Assembly: GCA_963752595.1 (NCBI GenBank)
Contig: CAVVYZ010000002.1
Location: 224,001-288,000 of the forward strand
Direction of reading: 5' to 3'
DNA from: an uncultured delta proteobacterium
Lineage (GTDB): Bacteria; Desulfobacterota; Desulfomonilia; UBA1062
DNA length: 64,000 nucleotides
Made by a program: the position numbers and the translations under genes. Below, piece by piece: positions 99 through 5,491 of the stretch. Under the pieces are notes generated by a model. The model had not been told where the DNA came from and searched no databases. It saw nothing but the letters and a program-made list of their open reading frames with translations. Numbering within the stretch: the first letter of the stretch is position 1; every line of letters starts with the position of its first letter.

Positions 99-177
99 TT
101 GGCCTCCTCCTTTGGTTGGTTTTTTGTTGTTGGCGCTTCAAATATACCACCCATTCGAGGAGGCCTTACATAGTATC
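1..177 (-). mobile_element. End of an IS110/IS1111-type element inserted in an attC site
   Basis: Transposase start plus ~80 bp non-coding end; ...CATAGTATC abuts AATGGCATGCAGCGG (attC left arm) where RYYYAAC should be; exact boundary uncertain by a few bp. Confidence 0.7.
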
Positions 178-224
178 AATGGCATGCAGCGGACGCGCTG
201 CCGCGCGCCGCTGATGCCTAGCGT
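178..224 (+). other. attC site 1 (interrupted; right core completed at 2855-2859)
   Basis: AATGGCATGCAGCGGACGCGCTGCCGCGCGCCGCTGATGCCTAGCGT: GGCAT(G)CAGCGG/CCGCTGATGCC stem with one extra base; removing 225-2854 restores GTTATGC. Confidence 0.85.
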
Positions 225-875
225 GTGTGCCGGGCATGGCACAGAGCTAGCGAGGTGAAAGTCCTCGCGCCAGGTATAAACGGAGCCGAAGGCTAGGAGA
301 AGGGCAAGGGCGTCATCGCGAGGTGGGGTCTGGAGGAAGTCCAATCCAAAAGCTGCGGGGCGACGAACAGGAACCGGATATGAGGTGTGACGTACCCGGG
401 ACGAGTCGGCACGTGACGACGAAGTCCTCCATCCGTGAGTTGTGTACGTTTTATAAATCCGGCGCTTATGCGCGAGAAAGCTCTGTGTCTTACCCCGGGA
501 GATCTGTATGGTGTCCTTCACAGGTATGGCTGAAATATTGTGGCACCGCCTTAGAAACCAGGCGGCAAACAGAGAAAACAGATCTCAGCCTGAAGCCGGA
601 AGGACTAGAGTTCTTGAGAGGGAGCTCTGACCGCCATGCAGAAGTCAGCAGAGGGCATAGTAGGTGGAAGTATCACTGAAGGCCCGAACGGTTGAGAGGG
701 ATAGTGATCTGATAGGGGAGCGCTCATTAAGCCGGCACATAGTGTGGCCGCTTGCTAGAGATGGCAAGCAATTGAGAACTGGTCATGTCAGATGAAACGC
801 CCGGCTGCCTCGTTGTAGGCAGAGTAATCAGCCGAACCGCCGTGTACGTGACCCGTACGCACGGTGGTGTGGGAG

Positions 876-2821
876 TTGCGCCTTGAAGCGCATGGAATAC
901 AGTGACCTGGGATGGCCACCCTGGTAAAGCCTAGCCAGCAGCCAGGTACCGAGTCTTGCGTGGGGTGCGGTAACAATCTTCACGAAGCGTAGACAGGAAG
1001 GTGGCAGGCCGGAACCGAAAGATGAAGAGGAAAATTAGCCCCGAAATCGAACGTGTGCGGAGCAGTCGACCCTGTCTCTCAATGGGGAAGACGGAAATGT
1101 CATATTCGTTAGAAGGGCGAGAATATGAGATTGCTTCCGGGGTTCGTACCTACGGCATGTCATCAAGGGATTCCATGTGAACAAGGGAGATCCGGCGAGC
1201 TCAGGCGGAGCCTGTAGGAGCAAACAAGCCATCAAAGCGAGGATGCTCCGATGGTTCGTCGGAAGTCGGACTGGCTGATAGTACTTTGAGGCAGGGAGAG
1301 CCTACCACATGGGGAAGCGGCTAGCAGGATTTGAGCTCTTCTAAGGGAACATGAGCTCCATACAAAGGGAGGATACGAGCCTTCATGCAAAGGAGGGAGT
1401 AACTCAGTCATGGGAACGGGATTAGAAGGGATAGCAACGAAAGCTCGGAGTGAAACAAAGCTCAAGTTCACGTCACTATGCCATCATGTGACGCGGGAAC
1501 TGATCTGGGAGGGCCTGTGCAACATACCTTACCAGTCAGCGCCGGGAGCGGATGGCATCAGCGTGGAAGAGGCGAAGAGGACATTCAATGAATGGATAGA
1601 TGAGATGCACACGTCCATTCACCGGAAAGCATACCATGCACCACCAGTAAGGCGAGTATGGATACCTAAGCCGGGGAAAGCTGCCAAGCGACCGATAGGA
1701 GTCCCTTGCATAGCCGACAGAGCACTTCAGAGGAGTGTATCAGTGATTCTGTCGAGCATTTATGAGCAGGACTTTCTGCCGTGTTCGTTTGGAGGCCGAC
1801 CGAAGCTGAGCGCCCATCATGCCCTAGCAACATTCAACGAGATTGTAGTGGGCAAGAAGGTGGAATGGGTATTTGAAGCGGATCTAAAGAACTTCTTCGG
1901 CAGTTTGGACCATGGATGGATAGAACGCTTTGTGGAGCACCGAGTCGGAGACCCGAGGATAATGAGCTTGGTTAAGCGATGGCTAAAGGCAGGTGTTCTG
2001 GAAAATGGAGAGGTTAAACCGGTAGATGTGGGGACTCCTCAAGGGGGATCCATCAGTGTGCTGTTAAGTAATCTATATCTCCACTACGCTTTGGATCTAT
2101 GGTTCGAAAGGATTATAAAGCCAAATTTAAAAGGAGAAGCTTACTTGATAAGGTACATAGACGACTTTGTGGTATGCTTCCAATATCGCTCGGATGCAAT
2201 CTTCTTTCAGGATGCGCTGGTAAAGAGACTTGAGAAATTCAGCTTGGAACTAGAGCCTGAAAAGACCCGTTTGGTGGAATTTGGGCGCTTTGCTTCGGAG
2301 AATTCAGAAAAGCGTGGAAAGAGACTGGAGACGGTTTTCTTTCTAGGATTTACCCACTACTGCTCTCGCAACAAGAAGGGCAATTTCATGGTGGGGCGCA
2401 AGACTGAGAAGGCTCGATTCCGACGGAGCATATGCAAATTGCAAACACTGATGCAGGAGATCAGGCATCATTCCCTGAGAGGATCAAGTCCTGAAAATCA
2501 ACCAAGTACTTACGAGGCCACTATGCTTACTATGGTAGTAGGAGGGAACTTTAAATCGTTGTACATGATTTATCATTACGCCGAAAGATACTGGCATAAG
2601 ATGCTTAGTAGTCGGAGCCAAAAGAGCTACATTGCCTGGGAAAGATTCAAATTCCTCAAGCAGGTGTTTCCGTTACAGCGGCCAAAGCTTTCCGTCACTT
2701 ATAGGAGGATGAAAGCGTTCGCTGTGCTGTGAATCAAATTCTGAAGAGCGTAGTGCGGGAAATCTGCACGCTACGTTCTGTGGGGGTTGGGGCTGCCAAT
2801 TGGCAGCTCCTTCTACCCGGC
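876..2821 (+). mobile_element. RT-encoding group II intron (IIB-like) nested in the outer intron (twintron)
   Basis: Starts TTGCG; Id3 stem-loop GTCGACCCTGT-CTCTCA-ATGGGGAAGAC; DV GAAGAGCGTAGTGCGGGAAATCTGCACGCTACGTTCTG at 2743-2780; DVI ending CTACCCGGC; removal restores outer DVI GGGAG|GAGGGGTGTCGTGAGGCGCCCCCCTATCCCGAT. Confidence 0.88.
1410..2732 (+). CDS. ltrA: Group II intron reverse transcriptase/maturase, no endonuclease domain
   Basis: APGADG, RRVWIPKPGK..RPIGVP, GTPQGG, RYIDDF, FLGF motifs; domain X garbled at ~2475-2545 by three compensating +1 indels (read-through QVLKINQVLRGHYAYYG). Confidence 0.95.
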   Translation: MGTGLEGIATKARSETKLKFTSLCHHVTRELIWEGLCNIPYQSAPGADGISVEEAKRTFNEWIDEMHTSIHRKAYHAPPVRRVWIPKPGKAAKRPIGVPCIADRALQRSVSVILSSIYEQDFLPCSFGGRPKLSAHHALATFNEIVVGKKVEWVFEADLKNFFGSLDHGWIERFVEHRVGDPRIMSLVKRWLKAGVLENGEVKPVDVGTPQGGSISVLLSNLYLHYALDLWFERIIKPNLKGEAYLIRYIDDFVVCFQYRSDAIFFQDALVKRLEKFSLELEPEKTRLVEFGRFASENSEKRGKRLETVFFLGFTHYCSRNKKGNFMVGRKTEKARFRRSICKLQTLMQEIRHHSLRGSSPENQPSTYEATMLTMVVGGNFKSLYMIYHYAERYWHKMLSSRSQKSYIAWERFKFLKQVFPLQRPKLSVTYRRMKAFAVL

Positions 2822-2877
2822 GAGGGGTGTCGTGAGGCGCCCCCCTATCCCGATTATGCATAGGAACTGGTTCAAAT

Positions 2878-3590: not shown

Positions 3591-3620
3591 CGCGGCATGT
3601 ATTTTATCAGAGCAAACAAA

Positions 3621-3677
3621 ATCCAACCAGCCACTCCAGCCGACGGCCTATAGCCGCGGCTGACCGGCACGTTGAGG
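3621..3677 (+). other. attC site 2
   Basis: ATCCAAC-CAGCCACTCCAGCCGACGGCCTATAGCCGCGGCTGACCGGCAC-GTTGAGG: AAC/GTT cores and CAGCCG/CGGCTG stem. Confidence 0.8.
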
Positions 3678-3714
3678 CCATTGATTCATATCATTGCAAA
3701 AAATAGGAGGCATT

Positions 3715-4170
3715 ATGAATAAGTTACCTACCGAACAGACAACATCTCGACAGCTAATACGCCTTGGCATACTTCTGTTTTTTCTAGGGCTTCTCTCCGG
3801 CCTGGTCGTGCCAATGCTGTCCAACCCTCGCATGGGTCTTTCAAGCCATCTCGAAGGTGTGATGAATGGCTCCTTTCTGGTCATTCTGGGCCTGATATGG
3901 TCCAAGCTTCGATTGTCTCGAATGACCATGATAACCACGTTCCGGCTGGCCATCTATGGTGCCTATGTCAATTGGGCCACCACCTTAGCCGGGGCGGCAT
4001 GGGGGGCCGGTAATTCCATGATGCCTATCGCAGGCATGGGCCATAGGGGTTCGCCCCTCCAAGAGGGGATCATCAACTTTGGCCTGGTGTCATTCGCCAT
4101 TGCCATTCTCCTCACGTGCGTCATTGTCTTGTGGGGTCTCCGAGGTGCAGACGAGCCCAAGTCTACGTGA
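3715..4170 (+). CDS. Four-helix membrane protein, styrene-oxide isomerase (StyC)-like
   Basis: NPRMGLSSHLEGVMNG motif with conserved His; 4 hydrophobic helices; SD AGGAGG. Confidence 0.55.
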   Translation: MNKLPTEQTTSRQLIRLGILLFFLGLLSGLVVPMLSNPRMGLSSHLEGVMNGSFLVILGLIWSKLRLSRMTMITTFRLAIYGAYVNWATTLAGAAWGAGNSMMPIAGMGHRGSPLQEGIINFGLVSFAIAILLTCVIVLWGLRGADEPKST

Positions 4171-4213: not shown

Positions 4214-4831
4214 ATGAAACGTTGTGAATGGGCTAATAGGAGCGAGTTGGAACAGTCTTATCACGATAAGGAATGGGGCACAGCAATCCATGACGACAGA
4301 AGCCTGTTCGAGTTTCTGGTGTTGGAAGGCGCGCAAGCCGGGCTGAGCTGGTCCACTATCCTTAAAAAGCGGGAAGGTTACAGAAAAGCATTCGACAATT
4401 TCGATGCCGGGAAAATCTCCCGATACTCCGAGCATGACGTCTCCATATTGCTGGCTAATCCGGAGATCATAAGAAACAGGCTCAAAATCAACGCGACCAT
4501 CACTAACGCCAGAGCGTTCTTGCAGGTGCAGGAACAATTCGGAAGCTTTGACCGTTACGTCTGGCAATTCGTTAACGGCAGAACTATCCAGAATTCATGG
4601 GAGAGGATTACTGATATTCCTTCCAGCACTCCTGAGTCCGGAGCCTTGAGCAAAGATCTGCAGAAAAGAGGGTTCAAGTTCGTTGGGACAACAATCTGTT
4701 ACGCATTCATGCAGGCCGTCGGCATGGTAAACGATCATGTCGCAGGTTGTTTCAGATACGAAGAACTCAAAAATAAGGACGAGCATAACCGGGCGGCGCA
4801 CCGAATCGCCGGGAAACCCGGCTCCCGGTGA
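4214..4831 (+). CDS. tag: DNA-3-methyladenine glycosylase I
   Basis: RCEWA, YHDKEWG, LEGAQAGLSW, IIRNRLKI, GFKFVG, MQAVGMVNDH. Confidence 0.96.
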   Translation: MKRCEWANRSELEQSYHDKEWGTAIHDDRSLFEFLVLEGAQAGLSWSTILKKREGYRKAFDNFDAGKISRYSEHDVSILLANPEIIRNRLKINATITNARAFLQVQEQFGSFDRYVWQFVNGRTIQNSWERITDIPSSTPESGALSKDLQKRGFKFVGTTICYAFMQAVGMVNDHVAGCFRYEELKNKDEHNRAAHRIAGKPGSR

Positions 4832-4845
4832 CCTTTGTGTCGGCG
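4783..4845 (+). other. Degenerate attC site 3
   Basis: GCATAAC...GCACCGAATCGCCGGGAAACCCGGCTCCCGGTGACC...GTCGGCG; right core GTT mutated to GTC; overlaps the tag 3' end. Confidence 0.65.
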
Positions 4846-4861
4846 ATTTTGGATATCTGAC

Positions 4862-5491
4862 ATGGAAAAATATCGAATTTACTGCTCCGGCCCACTGTTC
4901 TGCGCAGAAGAAATCGGCGGCATGAGTGCAATTGCCAAAGTGCTGGAAGATGCAGGCTTTCAAACATTCTTACCGCATCGTGACGGGATGGAAGCGTATG
5001 TCTTGCGTTTCTCAAACTCATCTTTTCCATCAACCGTTTCAGGGATACGCACACGCATTGATTACGCTATATTCTCCCTGGATGCATACGAGTTGATCGA
5101 AAGATGCAGCGCTGTAGTATGCAACCTGAACGGTCGTGTTCCCGACGAAGGAATGATTGTTGAAGCAACCCTTGCATATGCAGCCGGTAAGCCCCTCGTT
5201 TTTTTCAAAGATGATCTCAGGGCTCCTTTCGGCGGATATGACAATTCAATGCTGACGAGTCTGGTGCGCGGAAAAATTGTCAAAAGACTGAAGGAATTGC
5301 CTTCTGCACTCGAATATGAATTATCTCGGAAAACAGATTCAATACCCCTGTCGAACGGTTTAGAAAAAGCAATTTCATATGGGAAACGTATTTCATCGGT
5401 ATTGGAAAGCCTGCCGGAAAAGATGTTTAAAAAAAGGTGGTCGGACGAAATCCTCAGCCAGGTTATAGAAGAGGCACTCAAGGAGAAATGA
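4862..5491 (+). CDS. Nucleoside 2-deoxyribosyltransferase / Rcl-like N-glycosidase family protein
   Basis: IYCSGPLF, FLPHRDG, PDEGMIVEATLAYAAGKP pattern. Confidence 0.8.
   Translation: MEKYRIYCSGPLFCAEEIGGMSAIAKVLEDAGFQTFLPHRDGMEAYVLRFSNSSFPSTVSGIRTRIDYAIFSLDAYELIERCSAVVCNLNGRVPDEGMIVEATLAYAAGKPLVFFKDDLRAPFGGYDNSMLTSLVRGKIVKRLKELPSALEYELSRKTDSIPLSNGLEKAISYGKRISSVLESLPEKMFKKRWSDEILSQVIEEALKEK

Follow-up and report, generated by a model that had tools for sequence, protein, structure and literature searches.

A class E group II intron clade found at one fixed position in domain VI of other group II introns

The window, by which we mean the whole stretch of 64,000 nucleotides analysed here, begins with three nested elements: an integron attC site, an ORF-less class C group II intron seated at the GT/T of that site, and, within this host, a second group II intron (Table 1). 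The outer ribozyme is recognised in Rfam by D1D4-3 (312-488) and D1D4-1 (605-684), and its domain V (DV) carries a CGC catalytic triad, the signature of class C. The inner ribozyme is matched by D1D4-6 at 910-1150 (125.7 bits) and by RF00029 at 2744-2821 (45.1 bits). It is present once in the source genome (G000), where a second, partial copy of the host lies on contig C16; uninterrupted relatives of the host measure 448-613 nt. Removal of the inner intron restores the host exactly, and the arrangement is therefore that of a complete intron nested in a complete intron, a group II twintron.

Table 1. Coordinates of the nested elements and their functional parts in the window
Feature	Position	Strand	Basis or detail
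Left part of integron attC site (top strand), 5' exon of host	168..224	+	one hairpin with 2855-2862
5' part of host, ORF-less class C (IIC) intron: domains I-V and basal 5' DVI strand	225..875	+	Rfam, CGC triad
Host domain V	837..867	+	9/9 basal pairs, CGC triad, ends 8 nt before insertion; weak RF00029 match 835-925
IBS2 position (-12 to -9, 3' strand of host DV)	864..867	+	register from 90 DV-targeted loci
IBS1, basal 5' strand of host DVI (TGGGAG)	870..875	+	pairs with EBS1
Inner class E group II intron	876..2821	+	1946 nt; UUGCG...CCCGGC; Rfam matches, empty-versus-filled junctions
Probable EBS2 core (GAAC)	1049..1052	+	pairs with exon -9..-12 in DV-targeted loci
Id3 stem 1070-1073/1084-1087 with 10-nt loop	1070..1087	+	RNAalifold, 10 homologs
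EBS1 (CUCUCA)	1076..1081	+	mutual-information scan: columns 1077, 1079 are best partners of exon -2, -4
J2/3 linker	1261..1263	+	gamma G1261 complementary to last intron base C2821
RT/maturase ORF in DIV, 440 aa, YIDD active site	1410..2732	+	RVT_1 E 8e-28
Three 1-nt insertions near 2484, 2507, 2536 (net +3)	2484..2537	+	thumb region, ~18 codons out of frame, ORF kept open
Inner domain V (AGC triad)	2746..2778	+	RF00029
Inner domain VI, bulged A at 2815	up to 2821	+	RF00029 45.1 bits
3' part of host: remaining DVI, branch A at 2847, 3' end CCCGAT	2822..2854	+	
Right end of attC core, completes GT/TATGC	2855..2861	+	sequence

The setting of the host departs from the canonical IIC-attC placement on the bottom strand, opposite to the cassettes: host and relatives alike lie on the cassette strand at GT/T, the relatives being likewise preceded by attC-like hairpins ending in CGT. 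In this the host resembles the one top-strand IIC case, that of Enterobacter cloacae, cited in PMC7923331. The window host and eight of the examined loci (L205, L208, L210, L212, L216, L217, L219, L221) make up a class C family at CGT/T of top-strand attC sites, with at least three ORF-less members; such insertion looks like the property of a family in the phylum of the window, as against the single case in that source. The start of the window is itself a decayed integron or CALIN, with an intI fragment (a truncated integron integrase) about 4 kb upstream of the window (G000:C2 ~219850-220150, window -4155 to -3859), IS110 fragments directly upstream, a second attC-like site at ~3620-3676 and genes resembling cassettes: 3694-4170, 4214-4831, which encodes a methyladenine glycosylase, and 4835-5491, whose product is nucleoside deoxyribosyltransferase-like. 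Contig C20 carries an intact intI.

The inner element has the features of a mobile group II intron, namely a six-domain ribozyme, a DV triad and a bulged A in domain VI (DVI). Its termini are UUGCG...GC in place of GUGYG...AY, with gamma-gamma' complementarity retained; the clade described below begins with TTGCG in 102 of 123 cases and ends mostly with CCCGGT/C, and we regard these termini as a variant that is no bar to group II intron membership. A 5'-terminal hairpin of the inner intron as a mimic of DVI was considered and set aside; by eye, those bases have their partners on the 3' side of domain I. In the RT/maturase, Pfam gives RVT_1 only, with no HNH/endonuclease domain among the 440 residues, and comparison with a 94%-identical protein and with four close loci shows about 18 residues of the thumb region replaced. 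A run X1 contig shows three gaps over 2247-2757, a span that takes in the three thumb insertions; the insertions are either an assembly error or a real lesion; if they are real, this copy may be inactive, and the result at the level of the lineage is unaffected. Elsewhere in the window, the ORF at 7477-8190 matches the GrpB family over residues 16-104 only, about half of the profile, and then seems to run out of frame, possibly by another assembly indel.

The insertion is precise and without target duplication. An uninterrupted host relative (L205) reads ...GTGGGAG/GAGGGG... across the junction, and the named intron Sr.me.I2 gives an equally exact comparison between an empty copy (L167) and a filled one (L161, S. 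meliloti). Identical empty junctions sought among the examined loci amounted to two hits only, both self-related; DNA contigs cover the stretch piecewise, none of them bridging the junction by 31 letters. The preliminary description of this DNA had placed the insertion at the DV/DVI junction, separating the host DV from its branch-point helix. It was right that the element lies inside the DV-DVI region of another intron and that DVI is interrupted, but the site is the 5' strand of DVI, 8 nt past the DV, and DV and the basal DVI strand remain joined. The insertion lies 1-2 bp above the bulged A at 2847, a register that comes from a crude DVI re-pairing script (35/71 versus 95/1420 shuffles) with several spurious picks, used for that register only.

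Relatives were taken as the best 79 of 567 loci from GTDB genomes and the best 80 of 589 metagenome loci, making 160 with the window; because these are the best 80 of more than 560 matches per collection, distant members of the clade are under-sampled. Of the 160, 116 were usable, having a 5' end that could be recognised and a flank of 46 nt or more, and 44 truncated, disrupted or too-short loci were dropped. Within this set drawn from the best matches, a structural test (triad plus at least 7/9 basal pairs, DV ending 8-9 nt upstream of the insertion) finds a host DV at 103/116 loci, against a null of 0.9% per random position. The passes comprise 50/56 GTDB loci, 52/59 metagenome loci and the window, or 97/110 distinct 5' exons; the offset is 8 in 94 loci and 9 in 9, and the named DV-targeting loci span ten phyla. 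This is far from the one-off event, with close homologs showing varied EBS1 loops at unrelated sites, that the preliminary description had allowed for. DV-targeting homologs have RT identities of 58-79%, in a distribution that is bimodal (>=58% versus <=45%). With 2365 proteins at E<=1e-100 (8000 scored), the clade is therefore large; viral contigs gave one RT only, a distant one (37%). Unlike the clade, no class E outgroup entry targets DVI: a host DV was found before any candidate start in 0/32 entries of the class E range, which are those with a candidate start motif among 35 RT entries of 34-44% identity that had 500 nt or more of upstream sequence, their 5' ends being candidate motifs without individual curation (excluded were four entries whose flanks were shorter and one whose coordinates were faulty).

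Thirteen of the 116 loci failed the detector. By eye, L124 has a DV at offset 10 and is a false negative, L006 is a tandem copy, and several other failures are sequence mimics; L046, which passes, is probably a false positive. At L034, L036, L094, L101, L105 and L106 the EBS1 has been retargeted and the sites are not introns, so the specialisation on DVI is reversible. Members without a DV occur as tips dispersed over the tree, their EBS1 retargeted, a pattern suggestive of secondary departure. Several loci show more involved architectures. The clade is inserted in its own DVI at L045, L239, L249, L280 and L006, and some copies end in tandemly repeated DVI halves, apparently the scars of repeated self-insertion and recombination. 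Upstream of the RT in L017-L021, domain I is replaced or interrupted by tandem repeats of about 350 nt ending in a DV/DVI-like unit, and the 5' flanks of L065 and L125 carry a DVI 3' end followed by an IBS1-like hexamer, which suggests rearranged or multiply nested hosts.

In trees of 142 rows (FastTree) and 51 rows (a quick IQ-TREE), with references from named plasmids by way of tables in PMC3552965 and PMC4244168, the relatives form one clade with support 100 on a stem of 0.54-0.59 substitutions/site, and DV-targeters occur on all its main branches. Its class, which the preliminary description had left to an RT phylogeny, is E: the clade groups with S.ma.I1 and Sr.me.I4-like RTs (SH-aLRT 100 in the 51-row IQ-TREE, 96 in FastTree) and lies apart from g1, g2, g3 and D-type RTs, the groups against which it was compared. 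Membership in class D, g1, g2 or g3 was rejected, RT identity being only 29-31% and these RTs falling outside the clade's group in the tree. With the S.ma.I1 and Sr.me.I4-like class E introns the clade shares an RT/X without En; it differs in an RT just 35-44% identical to theirs, in its long stem and in termini that are mostly UUGCG...CCCGGY. Of the IIE RNA structure, with EBS1 and EBS2 both in DId, the loop-pairing analysis makes EBS1 clear and EBS2 probable. The RT of L164 is 99.1% identical to that of the pRmeGR4b intron, named as class E intron S.me I4 in PMC5894124; Sr.me.I4 was rejected as a clade member, the pRmeGR4b intron matching L164 and having 38% identity to the window RT. UHB.I2, with UUGCG..GU ends, was assigned to CL1 by its authors (PMC7923331). 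Introns of the S.ma.I1 type (L169, L168, L172) are found beside umuD on plasmids of enterobacteria, following a TA-rich motif; L169 holds two such copies in tandem.

The pairing that drew attention to this locus, CTCTCA at 1076-1081 with TGGGAG at 870-875 over six of six positions with one G-U, is confirmed; the conserved d3 loop around it is one of 10 nt (1074-1083). An all-column mutual-information scan picks column 1077 for exon -2 (MI 0.64) and 1079 for -4 (0.60), so EBS1 was identified without prior assumption. Counting both Watson-Crick and G-U pairs, 103, 100, 104, 97 and 94 of 105 non-redundant loci are paired at EBS1 positions 1 to 5 respectively, and only 63 at position 6; Watson-Crick EBS1-IBS1 pairs number 426/540 in 90 DV-targeted loci versus 355 +/- 7 after shuffling (maximum 388). 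Changes at EBS1 positions 2 and 4 recur on the RT tree, 11 times each. In a test of independent pairs, G at position 2 goes with C at -2 in the same direction in 7.4/8 (0 opposite, median p 0.016) and G at position 4 with C at -4 in 7.7/9 (0 opposite, p 0.008), the crossed control giving 0 same-direction pairs; EBS1 changes follow host changes on independent branches. TGAGAG, which had been proposed as the common start of DVI, is one variant of the target, but TGCGGG, TGAGGG and TGAGCG each occur more often in the set of 105. As to the second contact, 1049-1052 are Watson-Crick complementary to exon -9..-12, the 3' strand of the host DV, in 71, 77, 63 and 90 of 90 loci, and A/U at 1051 tracks T/A at exon -11; the independent-pair test for EBS2 covariation on the tree is non-significant (p 0.06). 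The EBS2 of the window matches IBS2 at only 2/4 positions because its class C host has a different DV end, and EBS2-IBS2 is described as dispensable for IIE splicing in PMC3753933.

Perhaps the register could arise by survivor bias, if an intron with a relaxed G/A-rich target inserted widely and the copies inside other introns persisted as harmless ones. Off-target copies with just the short motifs do occur (L003, L048, L223, L227), and the neighbours of group II introns are most often other introns, according to PMC7306698. A safe haven would fix no single-nucleotide register, however, sister class E introns show no insertion in DVI, and EBS1 is retuned per host, so we consider this explanation very unlikely.

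The hosts are of classes C, D-type, E, g1 and g3, ORF-less introns and the clade itself. Their RTs fall into at least five groups: D-type (a presumptive label that rests, for L162:5476-6741, on length and features of the type rather than on a named reference), S.ma.I1-like and other E, g3, g1, and a separate group with CGC triads (class C). The proposal that the lineage is specialised on the ribozyme core of unrelated introns is supported by this breadth together with the common register, the single clade and the EBS1 covariation. Within four genomes or records, the detector places 22/24 copies at a DV, and inspection by eye 21. On the Rhizobium T1470 plasmid, 8/10 copies sit in four different hosts, including 4/5 copies of one D-type host, and RF00029 independently matches the DNA immediately upstream of 8/10 copies; two off-target copies keep IBS-like motifs, and three DV-VI with non-matching IBS1 are unoccupied. 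Unoccupied matching hosts are found in G401 and G402, and homing is not saturating, because matching free hosts coexist with occupied ones (L253, L293, L299-L301).

These copies also bear on whether the inner intron spread mainly by hitchhiking, that is, whether a few ancient invasions were followed by co-splicing and co-retrohoming of the nested pair, the inner intron acting as a large DVI insertion. The insertion leaves the basal DVI helix and branch A able to form, and in G401 one ORF-less host occupies three outer sites with intact 5' ends, all filled, each filled copy having a private -2 C that the free copy lacks. Near-identical inner copies in unrelated hosts of one genome (L001/L002, L004/L007, the T1470 plasmid), in contrast, imply independent homing, and the number of host RT groups likewise argues against a few invasions; as the main route we regard hitchhiking as highly unlikely, and co-mobility may be a side route, hinted at in G401 only. 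The G401 observation is that all four filled copies of the ORF-less host (L235, L247, L251, L044) have C at exon -2, which disrupts pairing in the host DVI as well as with EBS1, where the free copy L293 has a matching A; a second G401 host (L043) shows the same C. Twintron co-mobility or exon co-conversion is possible. Systematic conversion of exon -2 was rejected as a general feature, being seen only in the two G401 hosts and L083.

The inner intron might, alternatively, be a mutualist retained because its RT/maturase supports ORF-less hosts. No RT lies within 2.3 kb upstream of many hosts, that of the window included, and G000 has no other RT close to that of the window (next best 27% identity). 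Yet many hosts encode an intact RT of their own, ORF-less host relatives without the insertion are common, and maturases are usually intron-specific; of all the explanations considered, this one strikes us as extremely unlikely.

We hold with considerable confidence, from the comparison of sequences, that a distinct class E clade occupies one fixed spot in the DVI of other introns and likely homes there by EBS1/EBS2 pairing; parasitism on other introns is the likely way of life of the lineage. The EBS1 and EBS2 loops would pair with the conserved end of the host DV and the start of DVI, recognition of the target being presumably sequence-based, and, on the model of RmInt1, for which En-minus homing at forks is described (PMC5894124), the intron would reverse splice at forks, into single-stranded DNA. 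Because IBS1 is the host's own basal DVI strand, host branching would be blocked, and it is plausible that the host is unable to splice before the inner intron leaves. The lineage would persist since its hosts renew the target. Going further, we lean somewhat towards seeing in this undescribed cross-phylum clade a generalist hyperparasite of group II introns, which reads the universally conserved DV-end/DVI-start, retunes EBS1 to switch host classes, gates host branching from its seat in the branch helix and may ride along with moving hosts.

Euglena twintrons have insertions in domains V/VI. Nested group II twintrons with inner-first splicing are described from Euglena, Trichodesmium and plant mitochondria (PMC4424553, PMC4649490, PMC7049729), and nested introns from Methanosarcina (PMC4424553). 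As those accounts present them, the Euglena, Trichodesmium and plant cases are individual events at varied sites (domain I in Trichodesmium), whereas the clade crosses phyla in one register. Closest in habit is the lineage homing into the RT genes of other introns at RYADD codons, with M.a.I5, UA.I3, P.l.I2 and B.th.I3 of B. thuringiensis israelensis (PMC2504315); as described there, it is like our clade in being En-minus, in having a conserved target inside other retroelements, in forming twintrons and in its IBS1/IBS2 specificity. Its target, however, is the protein-coding RT active site, which restricts it to RT-bearing hosts, whereas our clade lies in DVI, present in every intron class and in ORF-less introns; M.a.I5, moreover, appears under class D in the PMC4244168 table, our clade being class E. 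What is new is thus the landing site and the breadth of hosts, the intron-specialised life style having been published for RT YADD codons in PMC2504315. Other lineages, too, are defined by a recurring kind of conserved target, IIC after terminators or attC sites and IIB1 at start or stop codons in the descriptions of PMC12584367 and PMC7923331; these targets are host or integron signals, and that of the clade is the catalytic tail of another ribozyme. Our full-text literature searches found no bacterial lineage targeting DVI, and older intron papers or the Zimmerly database might hold an earlier mention. The pipelines described in PMC4028801 and PMC8919778 exclude or miss twintrons, which may explain why the clade was overlooked and why many introns are mis-annotated as 'fragmented'.

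The clade represents a third specialised targeting strategy in bacterial group II introns, and is alone among these in being directed at the ribozyme core, a part common to all intron classes, ORF-less introns included. Its targeting loops, together with the host sequences, form a natural and countable record of host switching between selfish elements. The long-standing idea that an inner intron survives by knocking out a domain its host needs can be tested directly with this clade, and intact copies are available in tractable rhizobia, alongside well-studied introns. In PMC4649490 it is stated as an assumption that an inner intron is maintained by insertion into parts essential for host splicing. 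If the hyperparasite reading is true, the clade would regulate the spread of introns in bacteria, a role so far unrecognised.
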